Translations under genes and position numbers: made by a program | Source of the DNA: Vulcanimicrobiota bacterium | Lineage (GTDB): Bacteria > Vulcanimicrobiota > Vulcanimicrobiia > Vulcanimicrobiales > Vulcanimicrobiaceae | Assembly (NCBI GenBank): GCA_963820185.1 | Contig: CAWFYV010000003.1 | Coordinates: 365,706-429,705 of the forward strand | Length of the DNA: 64,000 bases | Reading direction: 5' to 3' | Notes under the pieces: generated by a model | What the model saw: the letters and a program-made list of their open reading frames with translations, nothing else | Told to the model about the DNA's origin: nothing | Databases searched by the model: none | Shown: in pieces, positions 5,024-64,000 of the stretch | How positions within the stretch are numbered: position 1 is the stretch's first letter | How the letters are laid out: each line of letters opens with the position of its first letter

Positions 5024-6751
5024 TTACCGCAGCAAACGTTGGATCAAGCGCGTGCTGCCCATGCTTTTGTACACCGCATCGCCGCCGCCAGGCGGCGTAC
5101 CGATCATCTCGATAGCATCCACGTCGGAACAGTGTTCGAGCATCAGCAACGGGTGCGCCGGCTCCACGTTCTCGGCTATCACCTCTCGGCCATGGTAACA
5201 GCGCATCGTGAAGGCCTTCGGATACGGTGGCGCGGTCCAATACAATGGGACTTGATCGTCAAATTGCACGGCATCAACACTTCGATCCCCGCCGCGCAGA
5301 CGCACGATGAATTCGTGCTGTGCGGGTCGGATGACCACGGCATACGCACTTGCGGGAAGCGAACGCGCGAGACTTAGAGCGAAAGGAAGAAGCACGACGA
5401 CGCACGTGAGTGCGCCGACGATGGCTTTGGTCCGCACTTCGCTTGAAAGTCTGAACACAACGAGAAGCGCGATGAGCGCTGCCGTGAAGATGAGGAGCGC
5501 GCCGATCGGCCGCGTGTACGGCGCGATGCCGCCCGGATCGCCATCGACCGGAAGGAACAAGCCGAAGTCCACGTGCGACCACAGGAACAGCGCTGCGTAC
5601 GGTATCGATGCTTGTCGACTCTCGAGATACCACAGGGGATTCAACGCGTACGTTATCGTGTTGCCGACGTTTAGCGCCGCCAAGGGAAGGACTGGTAGCC
5701 ATTCCCACCAGTGCGTCGCGAGATACAGCCAATAACACAGCCCCGCCGCAAGGAACGGCAACCCGGCGACCCAGAAGCGCGCCGTCCATGACTCCTGCGC
5801 CGTTGACCACATGAACGTCGCGAAGTAGGTCGCGAAGAGCACGAAACTGTAGACGCAAAGACGCTCGCGACGCACGGTCCCGAGCACGAGGCCGGCCAGA
5901 CCCACGAGGAGCAGCGGCGCGTACGCGATTGCACCGTGGCGAACGTCGTAGAACTGCATCCCGATCCGTTCGAACACCATCGCGATCGATGGTGCGTAGG
6001 CCGGAAATGCCGAGCCCGTAAACGAGCCGTACAGCCAGAATTGCGTTGCCGCAAACGTTCCAAGCCCGGCGGCATACAGCGTGCACGTCTGCAACCACAC
6101 GACGATGGGCACGCGATCGCGCCCCATCTGCACGAGCATAACGGCAAAGAGGGCTAGCGCCAGCGGCAGCGCGCGCAGGTGCACAAACGGTAGCACGACG
6201 ACCGCCGCAAGCGTCGCATAACGATTGCGCACGAGCAGCGCGTAGAGCGCAGCCGTCACAACCGTGAACAGCAGTATCTCCGGGTAGATGAGCTGCAGAT
6301 ACTCAACGAATGGAATGGAGATGGCGATCGCAACAATCGTGACGATCACGGCCCAACTCGCTCCCCCCGTACGATTCGGAAAGCGCAACTTGAGCATGAA
6401 ATACAGCAGCGCCAAACCGATGCAGCCGACGACGAAGTTGAGCCAACGTGCGGCCTCGAGTCCCCCGAGCCGCAGCGCCGCCCCAAAGACGAGACTCGGG
6501 GAAATCGTCTGCAGCGGCCGGCCCGGCTGGTTCGAGGCGAGGATCCCGCCGTTTCCGCACCCATTCGCGGCGGCAAACTGCTTCCACAACGCGTGTTCGG
6601 GATAAAAGCCGCCATTTGCGTAGAGGCCGACGCCTTGGAACGCGTAGCGCACCTCGTCACCCGTGCACGGCAATTTACCTGCGATGAGGTGAATGCCGGC
6701 CAGTACAAGGAAGATCGCAACGAGCCAGAGCCGATCGGCAAACCTCGCCAT
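5024..6751 (-). CDS. polytopic membrane protein, GT-C fold glycosyltransferase-like (ArnT/PMT-like) with C-terminal soluble domain
   Basis: 575 aa with more than 10 predicted TM helices. First-loop motif TGDEVRYAF resembles the DExRY loop of ArnT-type GT-C enzymes. Starts 6 nt after the flhA stop. Confidence 0.45.
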   Translation of the reverse strand: MARFADRLWLVAIFLVLAGIHLIAGKLPCTGDEVRYAFQGVGLYANGGFYPEHALWKQFAAANGCGNGGILASNQPGRPLQTISPSLVFGAALRLGGLEAARWLNFVVGCIGLALLYFMLKLRFPNRTGGASWAVIVTIVAIAISIPFVEYLQLIYPEILLFTVVTAALYALLVRNRYATLAAVVVLPFVHLRALPLALALFAVMLVQMGRDRVPIVVWLQTCTLYAAGLGTFAATQFWLYGSFTGSAFPAYAPSIAMVFERIGMQFYDVRHGAIAYAPLLLVGLAGLVLGTVRRERLCVYSFVLFATYFATFMWSTAQESWTARFWVAGLPFLAAGLCYWLYLATHWWEWLPVLPLAALNVGNTITYALNPLWYLESRQASIPYAALFLWSHVDFGLFLPVDGDPGGIAPYTRPIGALLIFTAALIALLVVFRLSSEVRTKAIVGALTCVVVLLPFALSLARSLPASAYAVVIRPAQHEFIVRLRGGDRSVDAVQFDDQVPLYWTAPPYPKAFTMRCYHGREVIAENVEPAHPLLMLEHCSDVDAIEMIGTPPGGGDAVYKSMGSTRLIQRLLR

Positions 6752-6757
6752 CGCCCT

Positions 6758-8800
6758 TCAATTGGCGATCAATCGGTCACCCACCGCCATGCCCGACGGC
6801 GCAAGCGCCAACTCAGGCGGCAGCTCCGCATAACTGAGCACGTCGACGCGCACGCCCGAACGCAAGAGCAGATCCGCGAGCACAGGGCGTAACGCGATGC
6901 TGCAGAGTACGGCGGCACGGTCGCGCGGTATGCGGGCGACGTATGTGGCAACTTCATCGCGCAGCGCGATCGCGCGCTGCGGATCGGGAGCGAGATCCGC
7001 ACCGAAGCCAACCCATTGACGCACGAGCTCGCGATCGAATTCGGCGTCGACGACGAGCGGCTCCAAGTGCTCGATCCCGCGACGCCGCAGCAGATCGGGA
7101 ACGATTACGCGTCGCGCGGTCTCAGCGAGTTCGCGTGCGTCGCGCGAGGGCGATTCCAACATCGCTTGCAATACGGCGACCGGGTCGCGCGGCCAGGCCG
7201 CCTCGCGCAGCAAATGTCCAAATGCCCGGTGCAGCGTACCCAATGGAAACGCATCCGTACCGACATCGCGAATCAGTGCAGGCATCGTTGCGCGCAGATG
7301 CTCGAGCAACGTCTGCAATTCCTGACGTCCGAGCAATTCGCTCGCGTAGCGGCGCACCGTCTCCGCGACGTGCGAGCCAATGATCGAAATCGGATCGAAG
7401 ACCAGCGCGCCAGCCGACGCAATTCGCTCGCGGTCGTTCGGATCGATCCACGCAGCGGGCAACGAGTAGACCGGTTCGCTCTCCACCCGGAGTCCGAACC
7501 CCGCGAGCAGTTGCGAATCGGCGACGGCCATCACGCGACCGAGCTCGAGCCGTCCCTCCGCAACGACGCGATCGCGTACGCGAATTGCATAGGTTCGCGG
7601 ATCGCGTGCAAGGTCGTCACGCAATCGGACGCCGGGAAGCACGAGGCCGATCTCGCCTGCGAGCGCGCGGCGCACCTCGCCGATGCGATCCAGCAACGCG
7701 TCGGAGAGCGGCGGCACGAGCAGGTGGGCAAGGTCGGCGCCGATATCGATCGCCATTGCGTCGACACCAACGAGGCTGAGCGCGAGCTCGGGGCGGCGCA
7801 ACGCCAGCCGTTTCGCACGGTCACTTGACGCGCGCGCGTCGTCGTCGCTGCGCTTCTTTCGCCGGACCGCAACTTGCGCGAGCACGAACGCACTGGCACC
7901 AAGCACAAGGAATACCGGCCGCGGCAGCGAGGGCACGAATGAAAGCACCACGAGCAATGCACCGGCACTGCGCAACACGTCGGGACGTGCGAAGAGCTGC
8001 GCTGCGAGGTCCGCGCCGAGCGCACCATCGGAGGCGACGCGCGTGACCATCATTCCCATCGCCGTGGATATAAGGAAGGCCGGCAAGGTCGTCACGAGCG
8101 CATTGCCGATCGAGAGAAGCGCAAAGGTATTAATCGCGTCGAGTGGCGAGAGGCCGTGGTAGGCGATGCCCACGACGATCCCGCCGACCAGGTTCAATGC
8201 GACGATCACCAAAGCCGCAATGGCGTCGCCCTTGACGAATTTTCCAGCACCATCCATCGCGCCATAGAAATCGGCCTCGCGCTGGACCGCAGCGCGTTTA
8301 CGACGCGCGCCGTCCGCGTCGAGCGCACCCGCATGCACGTCGGCATCGATCGCCATCTGCTTGCCCGGCATCGCGTCGAGCGTGAAGCGCGCTGCCACTT
8401 CGGCTACACGTTGCGATCCGCTCGCGATCACGACGAATTGAATGGTAATCAGGATCGCGAACACGATCAGGCCCACGACGAGATTGCCGTGGACAACGAA
8501 TGCGCCAAAAGCCGGGATGATCGCGCCGACCGCGCCTGGCGAAGCGCCCTGCGTGAGGATCAAGCGCGTGGCCGATACGTCGAGCGAAAGACGGAAAAGC
8601 GTTGCGACGAGCAGCGCAGGCGCGAAAGCCGAGAACTCGAGCGGATCGTCGATCGTCACCGCAAGCAGGAGCACGAGCGCTGAGCCGAAGATGTTGATCC
8701 CGAGCAACACGTCGAGCAACGCGGGCGGCAGCGGCACGATGAGAATGCCGACGATTGCCAGCAGCACCCCTGCAAAGATGTACACCGGCAAGCGCGTCAC
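6758..8800 (-). CDS. flhA: flagellar/type III export gate protein FlhA (SctV family)
   Basis: 680 aa. FHIPEP-type N-terminal TM domain (FAPALLVATLFRLSLDVSATRLIL, RFTLDAMPGKQMAIDAD, FYGAMDGAGKFVKGDAIA) plus large cytoplasmic C-domain. GTG start overlaps the flhB stop (GTGA). Confidence 0.9.
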   Translation of the reverse strand: MTRLPVYIFAGVLLAIVGILIVPLPPALLDVLLGINIFGSALVLLLAVTIDDPLEFSAFAPALLVATLFRLSLDVSATRLILTQGASPGAVGAIIPAFGAFVVHGNLVVGLIVFAILITIQFVVIASGSQRVAEVAARFTLDAMPGKQMAIDADVHAGALDADGARRKRAAVQREADFYGAMDGAGKFVKGDAIAALVIVALNLVGGIVVGIAYHGLSPLDAINTFALLSIGNALVTTLPAFLISTAMGMMVTRVASDGALGADLAAQLFARPDVLRSAGALLVVLSFVPSLPRPVFLVLGASAFVLAQVAVRRKKRSDDDARASSDRAKRLALRRPELALSLVGVDAMAIDIGADLAHLLVPPLSDALLDRIGEVRRALAGEIGLVLPGVRLRDDLARDPRTYAIRVRDRVVAEGRLELGRVMAVADSQLLAGFGLRVESEPVYSLPAAWIDPNDRERIASAGALVFDPISIIGSHVAETVRRYASELLGRQELQTLLEHLRATMPALIRDVGTDAFPLGTLHRAFGHLLREAAWPRDPVAVLQAMLESPSRDARELAETARRVIVPDLLRRRGIEHLEPLVVDAEFDRELVRQWVGFGADLAPDPQRAIALRDEVATYVARIPRDRAAVLCSIALRPVLADLLLRSGVRVDVLSYAELPPELALAPSGMAVGDRLIAN

Positions 8801-9810
8801 AGGAGTGCCCCGCTCTTAATCAGCGCTGCAACGATCTCCGCGACCGCGATGTAATGCTCGTAGGCGATCGGCTCGCCAACGATACCGTCGCGGTAGAGCG
8901 CACGCGCCAGCGGTACGTTCTCAATTACCGGAACATCGTGTTCCTTGGCAAACTCGCGCACACGTAGCGCCATTTCGTCGGCGGCGCGCACGAGCACCGT
9001 GGGCACCGCAACGTCCGGGGGCCGGTAGTCGAGCGCAACGGCGACGTGCGTCGGGTTCACGACGACAAATGCAGCATCTTTGACTTTCGCAAGCGCGCCA
9101 CGGATAAGATTGCGATGCAGCGCCTTGCGCCGGCTGCGCGCCAGCGGATCACCATCGCTCTCTTTCATCTCACGCTTGAGTTCGGCCAGGCTCATTCGCA
9201 GTTTGCGCAACCATGCGCGCCGGGCGACGCCGTACTCGGCGATGGCGAAGAGCAAACCTACCGCCGCCGCGGCCCAAACCACGTGCTGCGCGCCATTCCA
9301 AGCGATCTGTGCGACGCCTTGCGGCGTTAGCGCGACCGCGCCCGCTCGCGCGAGATCTTGCAGAGCGGGAACCATTGCGAAGGATGCGAGCGCAAACGCG
9401 CAAAGCGCACGCGCACCATGCGTGAGCGCCTCGCGCGAAAACATGCGCTTGAGGCCTTCGCCCGGATTCAAGCGCTCGAGCTTCATCGCCGGCGTCACGA
9501 ACACGAGTCCTCCGCTTTGCAACAGTGCGCCGATGACGCCGCTCACCGCGGCGAGTAGTGCAGGCACGAGCGCGAGTGCGACGACCGCGATTGCTGGCAC
9601 GACGGCATCTGATCCGGCTATCGCGTGCGCAAGCGCTTCTTTCACGAGCGCACCCAACGGAGCGGCAATCGCGCAGACGCCGAGCGCAGCTGCGATAAAT
9701 GCGACGTTCGCGCCGAACTCTTGCGCGCGGGGAACATTGCCCTCGCGTCGTGCCTTCGCGATGCGCGATGGCGGTGCATCGAAGGTCCGCTCACCACTGT
9801 CGGCGCTCAC
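8797..9810 (-). CDS. flhB: flagellar/type III export switch protein FlhB (SctU family)
   Basis: N-terminus ...ERTFDAPPSRIAKARREGNVPRAQE and autocleavage motif VVNPTHVAVAL. Internal GTG at 9810 overlaps the fliR stop (GTGA). The 422-aa track ORF is an over-extension into fliR. Confidence 0.85.
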   Translation of the reverse strand: MSADSGERTFDAPPSRIAKARREGNVPRAQEFGANVAFIAAALGVCAIAAPLGALVKEALAHAIAGSDAVVPAIAVVALALVPALLAAVSGVIGALLQSGGLVFVTPAMKLERLNPGEGLKRMFSREALTHGARALCAFALASFAMVPALQDLARAGAVALTPQGVAQIAWNGAQHVVWAAAAVGLLFAIAEYGVARRAWLRKLRMSLAELKREMKESDGDPLARSRRKALHRNLIRGALAKVKDAAFVVVNPTHVAVALDYRPPDVAVPTVLVRAADEMALRVREFAKEHDVPVIENVPLARALYRDGIVGEPIAYEHYIAVAEIVAALIKSGALL

Positions 9811-10520
9811 GGCCGGCTTCCGGGATAGGGCAGGAGGGGATGGCCGGCGCGCGCCGAGAGCAGCGGAATCGAAACGGCCGTCACCAGCAATACCGCGCCA
9901 AATACAAGCGGGAACGAAAGCGCAAAGCCTGCGAAACGCGGGATGGTACGCGTCAGCGCCGCGACCGCGACCTGCACGACAAATGCAAGCGCAATCGCCG
10001 GAGCAGCCACCGCAGCGCCGACGAGCACGATCGTAGTTGCGAGCGTGCTCGCGAACGCGAGCCAAGCATGCGAATCAAATGGCGCGCCGGGTGCGACGCG
10101 AGCGAAGCTTTCCGAAAACGCGAGGAGTGTCACGCGATAGGCGCCGAGCAAAAAGTAGCCGCCGGTAAATGCAATCGACCACATGCGGCCAAAACCGCTC
10201 GGCGCGACGAGTTGCACGCTCGGTGCCATCGCCTTCACACCGACGTAATCGTCGAGCATGCGCCCACCGGCATAGGCTCCGTCATACAGGAGCGATGCGC
10301 CAATGCCTATCGCGCTTCCAAGCAAGAATTCAACGACGAACGCTATTGCGAGTGCAACGCCGTGCACATGCGCGCCTCGCACGCCGGGGACGATTGCAAT
10401 CGTCAACAAGAGCGCGATCGCCGCGCGCAATGCATGCGGCACGCTTGGGTGCGAGAATCCCGGAGCCCGCGATGCAAATCCGGCGCATCGCGCGAAGACG
10501 AGCAAGGCGGTCGCGTTCAC
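9807..10520 (-). CDS. fliR: flagellar/type III export protein FliR (SctT family)
   Basis: About 237-aa polytopic protein in the fliR slot. GTG at 10520 overlaps the fliQ stop (GTGA). Sequence upstream in the track ORF is Arg-rich junk. Confidence 0.8.
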   Translation of the reverse strand: MNATALLVFARCAGFASRAPGFSHPSVPHALRAAIALLLTIAIVPGVRGAHVHGVALAIAFVVEFLLGSAIGIGASLLYDGAYAGGRMLDDYVGVKAMAPSVQLVAPSGFGRMWSIAFTGGYFLLGAYRVTLLAFSESFARVAPGAPFDSHAWLAFASTLATTIVLVGAAVAAPAIALAFVVQVAVAALTRTIPRFAGFALSFPLVFGAVLLVTAVSIPLLSARAGHPLLPYPGSRP

Positions 10521-10786
10521 GATCCATAGACCAGCGCCGGAATGGCAGCGAGTGCGTCGCCAAAAAGTTGCGCGCACGCGTGCATCCCAAAAGCGCCAAA
10601 GAGCGCGATCGTCAGGCCAACCGCAATGACCTTCGGCAGGAGGGTCAGGGTCTGTTCTTGCACCTGCGTCGCCGCCTGCACGATGGCGATCGCCGTTCCG
10701 ACGAGTGCAGCGAGCGCGAGGACCGGTATGCACAGGATCGCGGCCAGCAGCATCGTCTCACGAAGCAACGCTTCGAATGCGCCCAT
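10517..10786 (-). CDS. fliQ: flagellar/type III export protein FliQ (SctS family)
   Basis: 89 aa, two TM helices. LLAAILCIPVLALAALVGTAIAIVQAATQVQEQTLTLLPKVIAV matches the FliQ pattern. Confidence 0.85.
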   Translation of the reverse strand: MGAFEALLRETMLLAAILCIPVLALAALVGTAIAIVQAATQVQEQTLTLLPKVIAVGLTIALFGAFGMHACAQLFGDALAAIPALVYGS

Positions 10787-10839
10787 GCGCTGACGGTACG
10801 CACGCGGCGTTACCTCAATGTTGCCGAAATTGAGCCGCG

Positions 10840-11505
10840 CTAGCGCACAAGAGCGAAGGCCAGGCCGTCGTACTCCTTCTCACCGACGGTTTGCAAGGCC
10901 GTCGCCTCGAACTGCGGTTCCGTTGCGAGCAGCTCGAGTGCGCGCCGCGCACCAACGATCATTGGATCGGCGTTCGAGGGGTCGGCGACCGCGCCGCCGC
11001 GGACCACGTTATCGACCACAACGAGCGTGCCGGAGCGTGAGAGGCGCAGCCCGCGCCGTAGGTAGTTGGGGTTGTTTTCCTTGTCGGCGTCGATGAAGAT
11101 CATATCGAACGGCGCGGCGCCCTGTGCAATAAGACGATCGAGCGTTTCCAGTGCCGGTGCGACTTCGACAGTAACAAGCGCATCCAGCCCCGCGGCAGCG
11201 AGATTGTCGCGCGCCACGGCCGCGTGCTCCGGATCGATCTCGAGCGTAATCAATTGCCCATCGGGCGGAAGCGCTCGGGCAAGCCAAATCGCGCTGTATC
11301 CTCCGAGCGTGCCAATCTCGAGGATGCGCCGGGCACCGCGCACCCGAGCGAGCAGATACAAGAGTTTCCCCTGCACGGCAGAGACCGCAATCGGCGGCAA
11401 GCCCGCTGCCGCGCTGCGCTCGAGCGCGCGCTGCAGGTCGCGATCCTCGCCGACAAACAGCGAGGAGAGATAGGCATCGACCTCGTTTGCACGATCGGTG
11501 TTCAA
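10840..11505 (-). CDS. class I SAM-dependent O-methyltransferase (family 3, caffeoyl-CoA OMT/YrrM-like)
   Basis: LLARVRGARRILEIGTLGGYSAIWLA (SAM motif I), MIFIDADKENNPNY, LVVVDNV. Probable TTG start at 11505 overlaps the metF stop (TTGA). Confidence 0.8.
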   Translation of the reverse strand: MNTDRANEVDAYLSSLFVGEDRDLQRALERSAAAGLPPIAVSAVQGKLLYLLARVRGARRILEIGTLGGYSAIWLARALPPDGQLITLEIDPEHAAVARDNLAAAGLDALVTVEVAPALETLDRLIAQGAAPFDMIFIDADKENNPNYLRRGLRLSRSGTLVVVDNVVRGGAVADPSNADPMIVGARRALELLATEPQFEATALQTVGEKEYDGLAFALVR

Positions 11506-12401
11506 TGCACAGCTCCGAAACTCGGCCGCCACGCACTCCCGGCGGTCAAGGCCGATACGATTGCGCGCGTGGCGGGCGAACGATTAAGTGTGTAAAAGTG
11601 GATTCCCGGCGATCCGCGGCTGAGCAATTCGGTCGCCTGCAGCGCAGCGTAGGCAACGCCCAAGTCCTCGACCGCTTTTGGATCGTCGCGACGAATTTCG
11701 AGTTCGCGCAGTAGCTTTGGCGGGATCGACGCGCCGATACTCGAGGTGAAACGTGCAACCTGCGAGGCGTTCGTGATCGGCATGAGGCCAGGGATCATCG
11801 GGATGCCGATGCCAAGGCGCTGGGCTCGCCCCAGAAACTCTGCGTAGCGATCGTTATCAAAAAACAGTTGGCTGATGAGGAAGTCCGCGCCCGCGTCGAC
11901 CTTCTCCTTGAGATATGCAAGATCGGCCTCCGGACTCTGCGCCTCCGTGTGCGTCTCGGGATAAAACGCCGCGCCGATACAGAAATCGTAGTTGCGGCGC
12001 AACATCGCGACGAGATCGCTTGCATGCGTAAAGCCGCCCGCCGTCGCTTCAAACGCGGTTGTTCCCTTCGGCGGATCTCCGCGAAGTGCGAGCACGTTCT
12101 GGATGCCGCCTCGTGCGAGATCGTCGAAGAGCGTGCGCAGTTCTGCGCGCGACGAGCCGACGCACGTCACGTGCGCCATTACCGTCAATCCGATGTCGCG
12201 TTGTATTTGTTTAGCCAGCGATACCGTCCGCTCGCGCGACGAACCGCCCGCGCCGTAGGTGATCGAGACGAAGGCCGGGCGCAGTGGCGCGAGCAATTCG
12301 ATCGTGGCAAGAAGCGCGCGCGCACCATCGTCATCCTTCGGCGGAAAGAACTCGAAGGAGAAGAACGGTCGCTGCGTCGCAAGGGCCTCGGAGATGCGCA
12401 C
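11502..12401 (-). CDS. metF: 5,10-methylenetetrahydrofolate reductase
   Basis: PFFSFEFFPPKDDDG, FVSITYGAGGSSRERT, VMAHVTCVG. GTG at 12401 gives an N-terminus of normal length; the track start at 12434 is a TTG overlapping fliP. Confidence 0.85.
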   Translation of the reverse strand: MRISEALATQRPFFSFEFFPPKDDDGARALLATIELLAPLRPAFVSITYGAGGSSRERTVSLAKQIQRDIGLTVMAHVTCVGSSRAELRTLFDDLARGGIQNVLALRGDPPKGTTAFEATAGGFTHASDLVAMLRRNYDFCIGAAFYPETHTEAQSPEADLAYLKEKVDAGADFLISQLFFDNDRYAEFLGRAQRLGIGIPMIPGLMPITNASQVARFTSSIGASIPPKLLRELEIRRDDPKAVEDLGVAYAALQATELLSRGSPGIHFYTLNRSPATRAIVSALTAGSAWRPSFGAVH

Positions 12402-12414
12402 GATGGCCTTGCGA

Positions 12415-13098
12415 TTATCTAAAACTGGCGGCAACGCCTCCGCAGATCAGCGCCCAGCCGTCTACCATGACGAAGAGCAAGAGCTTTACCGGCAGCGAGA
12501 CAACCGGGGGGCTGAGCATCATCATACCCAGGCCCATCAGCATCGCCGCGACTGCAAGGTCGATCGCTACAAACGGAAGATAGAGGGCAAAGCCGATCGC
12601 AAATGCGCCGCGAAGCTCGCCTACGACGAAGGCCGGCACGATGACCGTGAGCGGCGCCTTCGCGACCGGCTCGCTTCCTCGATGCGCGACGCGCTCGAAG
12701 AGCGTGATGTCGGCTACACGCGTCTGGCGCAGCATGAACGAACGCAGCGGTCCGGAGGCGCGATCCAACGCCTGCGACTGCGAGAGCGCACCGTGTGCAT
12801 ACGGTTCGACCGCATCGTGGCCGATACGTTGCAGCGTCGGTGTCATTACGACCAGCGTCAGCACGAGCGCAAGGCCGGAGAGGACCGCGTTCGGCGGAAG
12901 CGCCGAGGTGCCGATCGCCGAACGCACGAGCGAGAGGACCACCACGATGCGTACGAATGAGGTACACATCATGAGCAGAAATGGCACGATCGCAAGCACG
13001 GTAAGGCTTGCGAGCACATCGAGCGGAAGTGTTGCGTGCCCGCGCGCGGCGACGTCGAAAAGACCATCCATAGAAAAACGGTGCCGCAGCAGCGTCAC
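12415..13098 (-). CDS. fliP: flagellar/type III export protein FliP (SctR family)
   Basis: 227 aa. FLLMMCTSFVRIVVVLSLVRSAIGTSALPPNAVLSGLALVLTLVVM and VPAFVVGELRGAFAIGFALYLPFVAIDL are FliP signatures. Confidence 0.85.
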   Translation of the reverse strand: MTLLRHRFSMDGLFDVAARGHATLPLDVLASLTVLAIVPFLLMMCTSFVRIVVVLSLVRSAIGTSALPPNAVLSGLALVLTLVVMTPTLQRIGHDAVEPYAHGALSQSQALDRASGPLRSFMLRQTRVADITLFERVAHRGSEPVAKAPLTVIVPAFVVGELRGAFAIGFALYLPFVAIDLAVAAMLMGLGMMMLSPPVVSLPVKLLLFVMVDGWALICGGVAASFR

Positions 13099-61077: not shown

Positions 61078-62002
61078 TTAGCTGTTGGCGGCAGCGTTGT
61101 AGATATCCCGTATCGATGTGGGGAAAGGAATGTTTGGCGTCCATCCCGTCGCCGCGTGCAACTTCGACGGATCGCCGAGCGAAAGCGGTACATCCGATGG
61201 GCGCTGCCGCGCCGGATCGTCGCGGACCTCGACCGGCACGTGTGCTGCGATGATCAACTCGCGCAGTACGTCGCGAATTGAGCGGGCCGTGCCGCTGCAG
61301 ACGTTGTACGCCTCGCCACTCGCACCGTCGCGGGCGAGTGCGATGTAGGCGCGTACGACGTCGCGCACGTCGAGAAAATCGCGTTTCGCATCGAGGTTGC
61401 CAACGTAGAGCTGCGGCGGCGCGCCGGCGGCGATCTTGCGCGAGCTGCTTGGCAAAGTTCGCAACGACGAACCGGTCGCTCTGTCCGGGACCGATGTGAT
61501 TGAAGGCGCGCGCGATCACGACGTCAAGCCCGAGACTGCGCGCTTCCCCAAGCAACAGCATCTCCGCCGCCGCTTTGCTCGCTGCGTACGGATTGGCCGG
61601 AGAGGGCGCGATCGATTCCGACAACGGATATGCCTGCGCGGGTTGCGCGCCGTAGACTTCGGCGGAGCTCGTGAAAAGCAGCCGCACGTTCGCCCCGGTG
61701 TCGCGCATGTGCTCCCGTATGGCTTGGGCGACGTTGGCCGTACCTCGTACGTTGGTCACATACGTCGCCATGGGCGCGGCCAGCGACTCCGGAACGAACG
61801 TGACCGCTGCAAGGTGAAAGACGACCTGCGGTCGTCCGAGTTCAAGCGCTGCGCGCAACGACGCGAGATCGAGCACGTCGACCGGCAGCGCGTCGATGTC
61901 GTGCGGCCCTCCGCACCCAAGCGTTTCATAACCCGCCTTCTGCAGCGCTTCGAGAAGATATCGGCCGACGAACCCGGTTGCACCGGTGACAAGCGCGCGC
62001 AT
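61078..62002 (-). pseudogene. rmd: GDP-4-dehydro-6-deoxy-D-mannose reductase (Rmd-like SDR), frame broken near 61438
   Basis: N-part MRALVTGATGFVGRYL...SSAEVYG...PYAASKAAAE...FNHIGPGQSDRFVVANFAKQLA in ORF 60914..62002. C-part IAAGAPPQLYVGNLDAKRDFLDVRDVVRAY... in ORF 61078..61464. Frames meet at gcg-c-aag. Confidence 0.7.
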
Positions 62003-62008
62003 GTTCGA

Positions 62009-64000
62009 CTAGTGCGTAGGCGTCGAGAGCCGGTCGAGATCCGCGCGCACCATCCGCTCGACAAGCTCCTCGAAGCTCACTTGGGGCTCCCAGCCCAACA
62101 CGCGCTTCGCCTTGGCCGGATCGCCGATCAAGAGATCGACTTCGGCCGGGCGTACGAAGCGTTCGTCGAGGACGACATACGGTTCATACGAGCCAAGCCC
62201 GGCCGATTCAAAGGCTATGCGTACGAAATCACGCACACTGTGCGTGCGGCCTGTAGCGATGACGTAATCATCGGCGGTATCTTGTTGCAACATCAACCAC
62301 ATCGCGCGCACGTAGTCGCCTGCAAATCCCCAATCGCGCTGCGCATCGAGATTGCCTAGGCGCAGTTCCTTCGCCAAGCCTAGCTTGATGCGCGCGACGC
62401 CGTCGGTGATTTTGCGCGTGACAAACTCCTTGCCTCGCCGAGGCGAGTTATGGATCACGAGCTCGCCGACTCCCGCGTGGAAGCGTTGCGATTCAGTAGT
62501 AATATCGTAGAGCCATCCATCAAAGTGCGGTTCCTCGACCACGCGTTTAACCTCGGCAAGATCCTTTCGCAGATGCGCACCCTTGCCACCGACGTTATTG
62601 GGCGAACGCAGATTCATCGAAAAGAACGGGCCCGGACGCTCTTGCGGTCCAACGTCGACGTTTAATGCGACTTCCTGCCGAAGAGCTTTGCGCGTCATCC
62701 ACCACAGCCCCATAGCGAGCGTCGGGGAGTTCGTTTTGAAGTTCTTGTAGCGGTGCGTAGCGTTGCCGGCCTTCAGGCCGTCCGTCGCATTGTAGCCCTC
62801 GAGAAACGCGCGCCACACAGCCTCATCGCCGTTGAGGATTATACGAGGTACACGCTTGTATCCGTCGCGCGTATAACACTCCTCTTGCAGCCATTCGAGG
62901 AATCGTGGGGCGCCGTTAAGAGCCAGCGCACCGACAACGGCACCTGCGCGAAAACCTGAGGTCGTCTTACTGTAGGTCGTGAACCCTAAGGTCTGGCGTT
63001 CCCAAACCTCGGTAAAGAATGTCCGTAGACGGGAATCAGCGTTGGTGAACTTCCCATCGACGTGGCCGCCACGCTGCCTAGACGCCGAGCCGTCTCCCAC
63101 GAATGCGCCGAGCATCCAAGCGAACTCGAGCCCAGGGTTGGTAAACGCGGGTGCTTCGGGCAACTCCGCGCGGCTTACGCGATCACCGGCCGTCACCTCT
63201 TTTGATGGGCACTCCCTGTCTTCCATGAACATCACGTGGTCGGCAGTAAGCGTCACGCTACCGCAGCGCGCCTCGACACGCCGGACACCTTTGTTTTCGA
63301 CGACGGGCCGATGGCGATACGCGGTTCCACCAAGAACCTTGACGAACCGCTCGCCGTCCCAAACTTGCACGTCTTCGATGTCGAATTGTTGGACGTTCGG
63401 TCCCTTCTCCCGCGCGTGCAAGAGGTCCCCAATCGGAAGTACATCGATCAGGTTGCCGCGTTTGACGATGATTGGTGTGCTGGCCGGAACAGACTCGTGA
63501 TTGAAAAGTATTCCACTCACCGCAAAAATGTCGTATGACTCGCGATAGTTGACGGTGATCCAATGGCCGTACACCTTGGCAACGCCGTATGGGCTACGCG
63601 GGTAGAACGGCGTGCTCTCACGCTGCGGTGTCTCGACGACCTTCCCAAACATCTCCGAACTCGACGCCTGGTAGAAGCGTATCGACGGATCGGCTGCGCG
63701 AACTGCCTCAAGCACGCGCGTGACGCCGAGCGCGGTGAATTCGCCGGTGAGCACGGGCTGCTGCCATGAGGTTGGCACGAATGACTGGGCGGCGAGGTTG
63801 TAGACTTCGTTCGGACGCACATCGCGCACAATTGAGGTTATCGAAGATTGATCGAGTAAGTCTCCCGAGACGAATTCGATCTCGTCGACGAGGTGCGCAA
63901 TGCGCTCGTGCACGTCGGTCGACGTGCGGCGCGTCATGCCGACGACGCGATAGCCCTGTTCGAGGAGCAACTCGGCGAGGTACGAGCCATCCTGGCCGGT
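62009..64000 (-). CDS. gmd: GDP-mannose 4,6-dehydratase, 5'-partial (start beyond window end), interrupted in frame by an intein
   Basis: TGQDGSYLAELLLEQGY at the window edge, YNLAAQSFV, YQASSSEMFG, SPYGVAKVY, ILFNHE[intein]SPRRGKEFVTRKIT, RDWGFAGDYV. Confidence 0.9.
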   Translation of the reverse strand, partial: TGQDGSYLAELLLEQGYRVVGMTRRTSTDVHERIAHLVDEIEFVSGDLLDQSSITSIVRDVRPNEVYNLAAQSFVPTSWQQPVLTGEFTALGVTRVLEAVRAADPSIRFYQASSSEMFGKVVETPQRESTPFYPRSPYGVAKVYGHWITVNYRESYDIFAVSGILFNHESVPASTPIIVKRGNLIDVLPIGDLLHAREKGPNVQQFDIEDVQVWDGERFVKVLGGTAYRHRPVVENKGVRRVEARCGSVTLTADHVMFMEDRECPSKEVTAGDRVSRAELPEAPAFTNPGLEFAWMLGAFVGDGSASRQRGGHVDGKFTNADSRLRTFFTEVWERQTLGFTTYSKTTSGFRAGAVVGALALNGAPRFLEWLQEECYTRDGYKRVPRIILNGDEAVWRAFLEGYNATDGLKAGNATHRYKNFKTNSPTLAMGLWWMTRKALRQEVALNVDVGPQERPGPFFSMNLRSPNNVGGKGAHLRKDLAEVKRVVEEPHFDGWLYDITTESQRFHAGVGELVIHNSPRRGKEFVTRKITDGVARIKLGLAKELRLGNLDAQRDWGFAGDYVRAMWLMLQQDTADDYVIATGRTHSVRDFVRIAFESAGLGSYEPYVVLDERFVRPAEVDLLIGDPAKAKRVLGWEPQVSFEELVERMVRADLDRLSTPTH
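62447..63493 (-). mobile_element. intein (349 aa) with LAGLIDADG homing-endonuclease domain inserted in gmd
   Basis: Ser1 (SVPASTPIIV, block A), block B GSVTLTADHVMF, LAGLIDADG motifs MLGAFVGDGS and FLEGYNATDG, blocks F/G WLYDITTESQRFHAGVGELVIHN, followed by +1 Ser. Removal restores the conserved NHESPRRG. Confidence 0.85.

Follow-up and report, generated by a model that had tools for sequence, protein, structure and literature searches.

A predicted class 1 intein with an embedded LAGLIDADG homing endonuclease in the NHESPRRG motif of a Vulcanimicrobiota GDP-mannose 4,6-dehydratase

The window analysed here is a 64,000-nucleotide stretch of a Vulcanimicrobiota bacterium genome (assembly GCA_963820185.1, contig CAWFYV010000003.1, positions 365,706 to 429,705), at one end of which the gmd gene for GDP-mannose 4,6-dehydratase (Gmd) carries an in-frame insert of 349 codons. 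Judged from its sequence and its predicted fold, this insert is a class 1 intein that contains a double-motif LAGLIDADG homing endonuclease. We consider it very probable that the reading holds as a whole, namely that a class 1 intein sits in the NHE↓SPRRG motif of Gmd (the arrow marks the insertion point or an extein–intein junction), that it splices, and that its endonuclease is most likely still active. A preliminary description, made by a model from the sequence alone, had placed the insert at 62447-63493 between ILFNHE and SPRRG. These coordinates are exact, and to them we add the strand, which had gone unstated and is the minus strand.

The translated insert and its flanks read NHE↓SVPASTPIIV ... 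TADH ... AWMLGAFVGDGS ... FLEGYNATDG ... GWLYDITTESQRFHAGVGELVIHN↓SPRRG with the frame kept throughout, and every motif quoted in the preliminary description (Ser1, TADH, two LAGLIDADG motifs, blocks F/G and the +1 Ser) is present in it. The gmd stop codon occupies 62009-62011, and the 5′ end of the gene lies beyond the window edge (64000), with about nine of the first codons outside the window. The intein has a calculated mass of 38.9 kDa and a calculated pI of 8.4. The features of the precursor gene are given below; the limits of the intein domains are approximate and were set from the secondary structure of the predicted model.

62009..64000, minus strand: gmd precursor gene (N-extein, intein and C-extein), from its open reading frame and translation; Pfam GDP_Man_Dehyd matches in two stretches (E 7.5e-127)
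63494..64000, minus strand: visible part of the N-extein, 169 amino acids, ending ...SGILFNHE; collinear with 6031-6536 of the intein-free locus L082 at 85% nucleotide identity
62447..63493, minus strand: predicted intein, 349 amino acids, 38.9 kDa, Ser1 to Asn349; equal to the 1047 nucleotides absent from the intein-free orthologue
63158..63493, minus strand: predicted N-terminal splicing (HINT) region, about residues 1-112, from the conservation of T83 and H86, β-strands in the AlphaFold2 model and weak matches to TFIIB mini-inteins
63422-63493, minus strand: block A, with the Ser1 codon at 63491-63493
63236-63247, minus strand: block B, TADH (T83-A-D-H86)
62564..63157, minus strand: predicted LAGLIDADG homing-endonuclease domain, about residues 113-310, from Pfam LAGLIDADG_3, family conservation and Foldseek
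63086-63121, minus strand: LAGLIDADG motif 1, AWMLGAFVGDGS (AWMLGAFVGD134G)
62843-62857, minus strand: block D-like KRVPR
62777-62806, minus strand: LAGLIDADG motif 2, FLEGYNATDG (FLEGYNATD238G)
62447..62563, minus strand: predicted C-terminal splicing region, about residues 311-349, from matches to the C-terminal blocks of the TFIIB and PI-PkoII inteins
62447-62518, minus strand: blocks F/G, GWLYDITTESQRFHAGVGELVIHN, with His348-Asn349 at 62447-62452
62012..62446, minus strand: C-extein, 145 amino acids, beginning at the +1 Ser codon (62444-62446) of SPRRGKEFVTRKIT; collinear with L082 from 6544 on

Conceptual splicing gives a visible Gmd of 314 amino acids, which scores 422.5 bits against the NCBIfam gmd model TIGR01472 (cut-off 415) with about nine N-terminal residues missing, and which aligns without gaps across the junction to the GMD enzymes of Pseudomonas aeruginosa (1rpn, E 5e-128) and Aquifex aeolicus (2z1m). 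The earlier claim that splicing restores NHESPRRG thus holds, but its description of the motif as universally conserved has to be relaxed to highly conserved, since solved GMD structures also show NHESPLRG and NHESIRRG. The same junctions can be aligned with an intein-free Gmd, a comparison that the preliminary description had proposed. The window and locus L082 are collinear along 6.9 kb (window 64000-63495 corresponds to L082 6031-6536, and 62440-55989 to 6544-12978), and the two differ in length at gmd by exactly the 1047 nucleotides of the intein.

Decisive for the assignment is the family of related inserts. A search of a collection of 5.8 billion proteins returned 46 matches to the insert, all 46 of them embedded in Gmd. 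The homologous insert occupies the identical position in these 46 database proteins, in 80 genome loci and in about 28 viral loci, and such constancy of position across relatives is far beyond chance. In the family alignment (16-17 sequences), H348, K213, D238 and G239 show no variation and T83, H86, N349 and G135 hardly any, T83 and H86 each being at least 90% conserved. Position 134 is Asp or Glu in all aligned members, and position 1, which is Ser in the window, is Ser, Cys or Thr in relatives.

The AlphaFold2 model of the intein, calculated from the family alignment (predicted local distance difference test score 89.5, predicted template modelling score 0.90), consists of a β-rich N-terminal part, two α/β repeats and a β-rich C-terminal part. 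The LAGLIDADG motifs lie on the first helices of the two repeats (predicted helices 122-134 and 224-236). When this model was compared with the Protein Data Bank (PDB) by Foldseek, the best match was the TliVMA intein 7qsu (E 1.5e-19), followed by PI-PkoII, PI-PfuI and PI-SceI; the free LAGLIDADG enzymes I-SceI and I-DmoI (E about 1e-6) and the mini-inteins 5o9i and 6vgv ranked lower. At the sequence level, a phmmer search of the PDB gave weak matches only (E about 0.3), all to inteins at blocks A and F/G (TFIIB mini-inteins and PI-PkoII). The full-length inteins that head the Foldseek ranking speak for an intein and against the non-intein domain for which the preliminary description had allowed. 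Considering (i) the in-frame insertion, (ii) the presence of Ser1, TxxH, His-Asn and Ser+1, and (iii) the HINT fold of the model, the insert has the predicted hallmarks of an intein, and the motifs, the family conservation, the predicted fold and the intein-free orthologues agree with the earlier view that its LAGLIDADG endonuclease is apparently intact.

The combination of a HINT fold with a double-motif LAGLIDADG endonuclease that is predicted here is the architecture of the solved full-length inteins TliVMA of Thermococcus litoralis (7qsu/7qss), PI-PkoII (2cw7), PI-PfuI (1dq3) and PI-SceI (1vde), which Foldseek matches with E values of 1.5e-19 to 4.5e-09 and which share the standard class 1 junction residues with the Gmd intein. 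Sequence identity to them is, however, just 11-17%. The Gmd intein is also smaller at 349 amino acids, lacks an obvious extra DNA-recognition region, and resides in a bacterial sugar-nucleotide dehydratase, whereas the hosts of the solved inteins are an ATPase, a polymerase or a ribonucleotide reductase (RNR). It further differs from them in having Ser at both nucleophile positions, and such a Ser1/Ser+1 intein is of possible interest for thiol-independent splicing in protein engineering. The best PDB sequence matches to blocks A and F/G, the Methanocaldococcus TFIIB mini-inteins 5o9j and 5o9i (PIIxK...IG.L and Y.YDLT...F.AG.G..V.HN), differ in having no endonuclease and an archaeal host, and the match has an E value of only about 0.3. 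The archaeal UDP-glucose dehydrogenase inteins, such as that of Methanocaldococcus jannaschii, had been cited in the preliminary description as a precedent for a nucleotide-sugar enzyme outside the replication and repair network, and this comparison is consistent with Novikova et al. (PMC4760082), where ten inteins of this enzyme (UDP-glucose/GDP-mannose dehydrogenase, COG1004) are listed in Euryarchaeota. The dehydrogenase belongs to another domain of life and is unrelated to the 4,6-dehydratase, a member of the short-chain dehydrogenase/reductase (SDR) family.

By analogy with the established class 1 mechanism, we propose the following course of events. The gmd gene would be translated as a precursor of about 672 amino acids, in which Ser1, aided by Thr83 and His86 of block B, would attack the Glu-Ser1 bond in an N-O acyl shift. 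The N-extein would then be transferred to the side chain of Ser+1 by transesterification, and cyclisation of Asn349, aided by His348, would release the 38.9-kDa intein. A final O-N shift would create a normal peptide bond and restore NHESPRRG in an active Gmd of about 323 amino acids and about 36 kDa. Once released, the intein most likely retains site-specific endonuclease activity, a step deduced from conservation and distribution and less certain than those of splicing. Cleavage of intein-free gmd would fall at or beside ...AAC CAC GAG↓TCG CCG CG..., the intein-free target site of an allele with Ser-Pro after the insertion point being TTCAACCACGAG↓TCGCCGCGCCGCGGC, and after DNA transfer recombinational repair would copy the intein into the cut allele.

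Empty alleles of this kind are abundant among close relatives. None of the best 120 matches to the spliced extein (85-95% identity) contains an intein; they are 294-353 amino acids long, one being partial and the rest at least 311 amino acids. The nearest carry the name Candidatus Aquilonibacter, and the host of the window, most likely one of the Vulcanimicrobiaceae (phylum Vulcanimicrobiota, previously Eremiobacterota/WPS-2), probably belongs to Aquilonibacter or a closely related genus; most of the named ones are Aquilonibacter, Vulcanimicrobiaceae, Baltobacteraceae or Cybelea, with one labelled Verrucomicrobiae. At loci L082, L083, L123 and L125 the gene order is lysine aminomutase, OAM-like B12 protein, PilZ, gmd, rmd-like SDR, PEMT/ICMT-like methyltransferase and CDF transporter, followed by a thiolase where the contig continues; L124 has the same neighbourhood on a contig that ends within the gene at the methyltransferase position. 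Such natural pairs of intein-bearing and intein-free alleles at one syntenic position, together with natural variants of the presumed recognition site, make a convenient system for homing-endonuclease resistance. In the window, a homologue of rmd (GDP-6-deoxy-D-lyxo-4-hexulose reductase) lies directly downstream of gmd on the minus strand (61078..62002; PDB 2pk3, E 2e-62 via the L082 orthologue), an arrangement as in GDP-rhamnose loci.

Several observations weigh against the reading of a splicing intein with a live endonuclease. The window intein alone has no match at E ≤ 1 to Pfam PF14890 Intein_splicing or to NCBIfam TIGR01445 and TIGR01443, and its LAGLIDADG_3 match is borderline (23.4 bits against a gathering score of 22.5). 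We attribute the failure of the curated splicing models to the divergence of the family, that is, to profile sensitivity. Across the family, PF14890 matches 2 of 16 members and TIGR01445 matches 3 of 16, all weakly, LAGLIDADG_3 matches 12 of 16, and members also match the intein-bearing stretches of the NCBIfam RpoA'', RNR, DnaB, RecA, RFC and GyrA models. This genome shows no trace of recent homing, the closest intein-bearing relative being just 87% identical in the intein, and when the spliced gmd was compared in 90-nucleotide windows with relatives with and without the intein, DNA identity was 78-85% throughout, with no junction-centred signal of co-conversion. Nor does the intein have a foreign composition: its GC content is that of the exteins (0.57-0.61 in both), which argues for long residence. 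Finally, the neighbouring rmd is frameshifted near 61434-61440, where residues 1-189 and 191-305 of the L001 orthologue fall in two frames that meet in GC-rich ...GCGCAAGATCGCCGCCGGCGCGCC...; this may be a real pseudogene, with GDP-rhamnose synthesis disabled and the pathway decaying here, or an assembly indel.

The lack of a close donor, the absence of a co-conversion signal and the fully ameliorated composition would all fit an intein that still splices and has become immobile, or "fixed", its endonuclease no longer homing and the element passing by vertical descent. Such an intein would persist because imprecise deletion would wreck NHESPRRG, and its endonuclease would be conserved through being structurally coupled to splicing or recruited for a role in the host. 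We regard this as possible, if rather doubtful. Intein and extein divergence are strongly correlated (Mantel r 0.70, 0 of 2000 permutations), which indicates mainly vertical co-inheritance, and the endonuclease domain has suffered internal deletions in L004, L042 and L011. These three are, however, the only such deletions in the phylum, where the intein is open and similar in length in 46 of 48 species. Nei-Gojobori dN/dS, the ratio of nonsynonymous to synonymous substitution rates (304 pairs with dS < 2), is 0.18 in the exteins, 0.21 in the splicing regions and 0.18 in the endonuclease domain, figures that are rough because dS is near saturation (about 1 or more) and that also count against our reading to that extent; between the window and its closest relative L002, the domain has a dN of 0.058 and a dS of 0.96. 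Within the phylum the endonuclease domain is conserved as well as the splicing regions and is under purifying selection comparable to that on the host enzyme, and the open frames of constant length in 46 of 48 species speak against decay, despite the roughness of dN/dS. Both acidic residues of the LAGLIDADG motifs and the invariant Lys are kept. Moreover, on a neighbour-joining tree of 160 exteins the alleles with an intein are scattered among those that lack it, which requires at least 14 changes in intein presence, and related inteins occupy the same site in distant phyla and in viruses, so that horizontal spread must have occurred at some time. Within the phylum, the intein would appear to have been inherited mostly vertically, with repeated gains or losses.

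A different proposal, compatible with the intein reading and not exclusive of it, is that splicing acts as a conditional switch by which an environmental cue gates Gmd and hence GDP-rhamnose or GDP-fucose synthesis, the benefit to the host explaining retention throughout the phylum. The insertion lies in a conserved motif, where the precursor should be inactive before splicing, about 50 species of one phylum retain it, and Novikova et al. (PMC4760082) argue that the biased placement of inteins hints at function. Close relatives nonetheless do well without the intein, as the 120 intein-free extein matches attest, and Ser at both nucleophile positions rules out the usual kinds of redox or thiol switch; we consider the proposal improbable. 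Still less credence is due to the view that the insert does not splice at all, being a permanent domain of a variant Gmd, a pseudogene or an artefact of assembly. In its favour are the failure of the window intein on the Pfam and NCBIfam splicing models and the frameshift in the adjacent rmd, which shows that the assembly or the genome is not flawless. It would have to be squared with a predicted HINT plus LAGLIDADG fold whose top matches are full-length inteins, with splice-junction residues conserved across more than 100 independent assemblies and with an open frame under purifying selection, and a permanent domain of 349 amino acids would break an otherwise invariant motif. We regard it as highly improbable.

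The preliminary description had further suggested a possibly new intein allele or insertion site, and this suggestion is not borne out. At least 77 species-representative genomes have an intein at this site, as do about 28 IMG/VR viral contigs and 74 of 146 cluster representatives. The last figure comes from a profile search of 1.84 billion cluster representatives that gave 4504 matches at E ≤ 1e-3 and 178 at E ≤ 1e-30; among the 146 best-scoring newly returned representatives at 50% identity, these 74 have Gmd-like exteins and the intein at the same position, with the junction pattern FNHE↓[C/S/T]...[H/A/G/S]N↓SP.RG. A look-up of ten cluster representatives named only Anaerolineae metagenome-assembled genomes (MAGs). 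In a scan of one genome per GTDB species, from which the best 80 loci were taken, about 50 belong to Vulcanimicrobiota/Eremiobacterota species with 58-87% intein identity, the closest intein-bearing ones being L002 (87%) and L003 'Candidatus Aquilonibacter' (86%). At 29-41% identity the loci come from Saccharibacteria and other Patescibacteria, Omnitrophota, Nanoarchaeota/Woesearchaeota, Planctomycetia, Gemmatimonadota, Solirubrobacteraceae and Bacteroidota. IMG/VR contributed 39 related loci, of which about 28 are Gmd with an intein at the NHE↓SP site, giant-virus MAGs included. A tblastn search with the intein gave one weak, unannotated match in GenBank phages and none in PLSDB plasmids.

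Bacterial inteins concentrate in the replication and repair network. The Gmd intein is a well-populated case in a metabolic enzyme for cell-envelope sugars, with an ordinary mechanism and a site used across Vulcanimicrobiota, candidate-phyla-radiation bacteria, DPANN archaea, Actinomycetota and giant viruses or phages. The element is not of a new kind: public databases already contain inteins at its insertion site, and the literature describes at least one gmd intein, a full-length, likewise endonuclease-containing intein in the gmd of Thermosynechococcus sp. TA-1/CL-1 and Indian strains (Cheng et al. 2022, PMC9403480), where the insertion site is not stated. The phylum there is a different one (Cyanobacteria), and the Thermosynechococcus intein is not among the best 80 genome loci of our intein-profile scan; it may represent a different allele or a different site. 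In the literature we found no other paper on an intein in connection with gmd, GDP-mannose or Eremiobacter, and nothing relevant on the motif NHESP.

The Gmd site is therefore one that has been populated many times in public data and hardly catalogued, and public records mostly label the intein-bearing proteins plain GDP-mannose 4,6-dehydratase. For a number of them (P0027, P0029, P0032, P0034-P0040 and similar), only the last ~230 amino acids are called, from an internal Met (MGLWW...) in the endonuclease domain (L001 1149-1856). These short homologues, some of which look frameshifted, raised the suspicion of split or decayed inteins, which we rejected: in 77 of the 81 loci whose frames were checked, the precursor reads through without interruption and the intein sits at the Gmd site, and of the four others two are contig-end fragments and one (L047) is frameshifted. 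In L001, the contig behind P0027, a single open frame runs from the contig start through FNHE↓C...HN↓SPRRG, and because it stays open upstream to the contig start, the short proteins are a systematic artefact of gene calling and annotation at contig edges. In view of the poor labels and the internal-Met calls, annotation pipelines and intein catalogues could be improved. On long contigs, frameshifts inside the intein or at the N-junction are found in L047 (contig CAVUBQ010000002.1, 2.29 Mb; P0014), P0020, P0026, P0030 and P0046, and are either long-read indel errors or real pseudogenes; that in L047 is possibly an assembly error.

We tentatively suggest that the intein may still be evolutionarily active in Vulcanimicrobiota and that empty gmd alleles may carry the signature of escape from it at the target site. 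The suggestion comes from the dipeptide at positions +1 and +2, immediately after the insertion point, which is distributed as follows.

Intein-free Vulcanimicrobiota (n = 120): SP 54, SS 33, SE 10, SA 8, GP 6, AP 2, TP 2, SG 2, SM 2
Intein-bearing Vulcanimicrobiota (n = 47): invariably SP, encoded by TCN CCN
Similarly diverged Gmd clusters from Pseudomonadales (n = 120; mean column entropy 0.35 versus 0.41): SP without exception
Intein-free Gmd in a broad metagenomic sample (n = 66): SP 60 (91%)
Loci closest to intein-bearing Solirubrobacterales (n = 7): SE 4, SP 2, one with an intein

Just 45% (54 of 120) of the intein-free Vulcanimicrobiota alleles thus retain SP, and the loss relative to the broad background has an odds ratio of 12 (p about 1e-10) by a statistic that ignores phylogeny. 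In these alleles the +2 column has an entropy of 1.75 bits within the otherwise invariant block NHE..RRG.EFVTRK, and on the extein tree it needs at least 29 independent changes, which ranks it 31st of 314 columns, while the +1 column needs 7. Codons of the variants include AGC AGC (SS, L082), AGT GAG (SE, L124) and GCC CCC (AP, L123). The pattern would fit selection for empty alleles that evade cutting in the middle of the recognition site, and the small Solirubrobacterales set tends in the same direction. Gly or Ala at +1 would additionally stop an invading intein from splicing. Alternatively, Pro+2 may be under relaxed constraint in this lineage (the Naegleria GMD has Ile there), or the intein itself may constrain +1 and +2 in occupied alleles, against which stands the occurrence of SE in some distant intein-bearing alleles. 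If target-site escape is the true explanation, it would amount to a natural arms race between bacterial hosts and a homing endonuclease inside a conserved enzyme motif. We also considered AGY versus TCN codons at +1 as a marker of resistance and set it aside as weak, AGY being found in 14 of 60 background SP alleles as well.

Among the more distant inteins at this site is a large clade that starts with Thr (FNHE↓T[VI]ASFMP...HN↓SPRRG) and is found in Patescibacteria, Omnitrophota, DPANN archaea, Bacteroidota and viruses. Its members are listed below.

Genomes: L052-L060, L062-L066, L068, L069, L071-L073, L075, L080, L081
Viral contigs: L084-L086, L089-L095, L098, L099, L105, L106
Proteins: P0045, P0049, P0050, P0054, P0071, P0144, P0149

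All 22 of the genome loci checked have intact frames, and genome and viral loci alike share the conserved junctions. According to Tori et al. 2010 (PMC2807308), Thr1 was unobserved in natural inteins as of InBase 2009 and an S1T mutant splices; we found no later report of natural Thr1 inteins in the literature searched. By their sequences, the members of this clade would be natural Thr1 inteins. They are also longer (387-405 amino acids; P0031, P0033, P0045 and L052-L081), with an extra ~30-45 amino acids between the endonuclease and the C-terminal splicing region. This extra insert is helix-turn-helix-like, for example LSQRGIHRETGISRGFIRKV, and has weak matches to Pfam HTH_19, HTH_7 and HTH_23. 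P0045 has in addition a Cys/His-rich insert, CLQCKYCKYVCSRKSNHANHELKC, ahead of the first LAGLIDADG motif. Both kinds of insert are probably added DNA-binding modules.

Two metagenomic proteins, P0059 (1087 amino acids) and P0090 (1043 amino acids), each contain a second intein elsewhere in Gmd, inside the catalytic motif ...YQAS↓SSEMFG. The junctions read YQAS↓SIAYDTPVLV...VLAHN↓SSEMFG in P0059 and FYNAG↓CHSADTKVL... in P0090, so that inteins are inserted in Gmd at no fewer than two sites. Paralogous SDR sugar-nucleotide enzymes (P0085, P0087, P0101, P0103; L107, L111) carry related inteins at the position equivalent to NHE↓SPRRG, with the junctions ...FNHS↓I/SV...HN↓TGPRRG and ...MFTHS↓VSRW..., a sequence pattern which suggests that the intein moved between paralogous sites sharing the motif.

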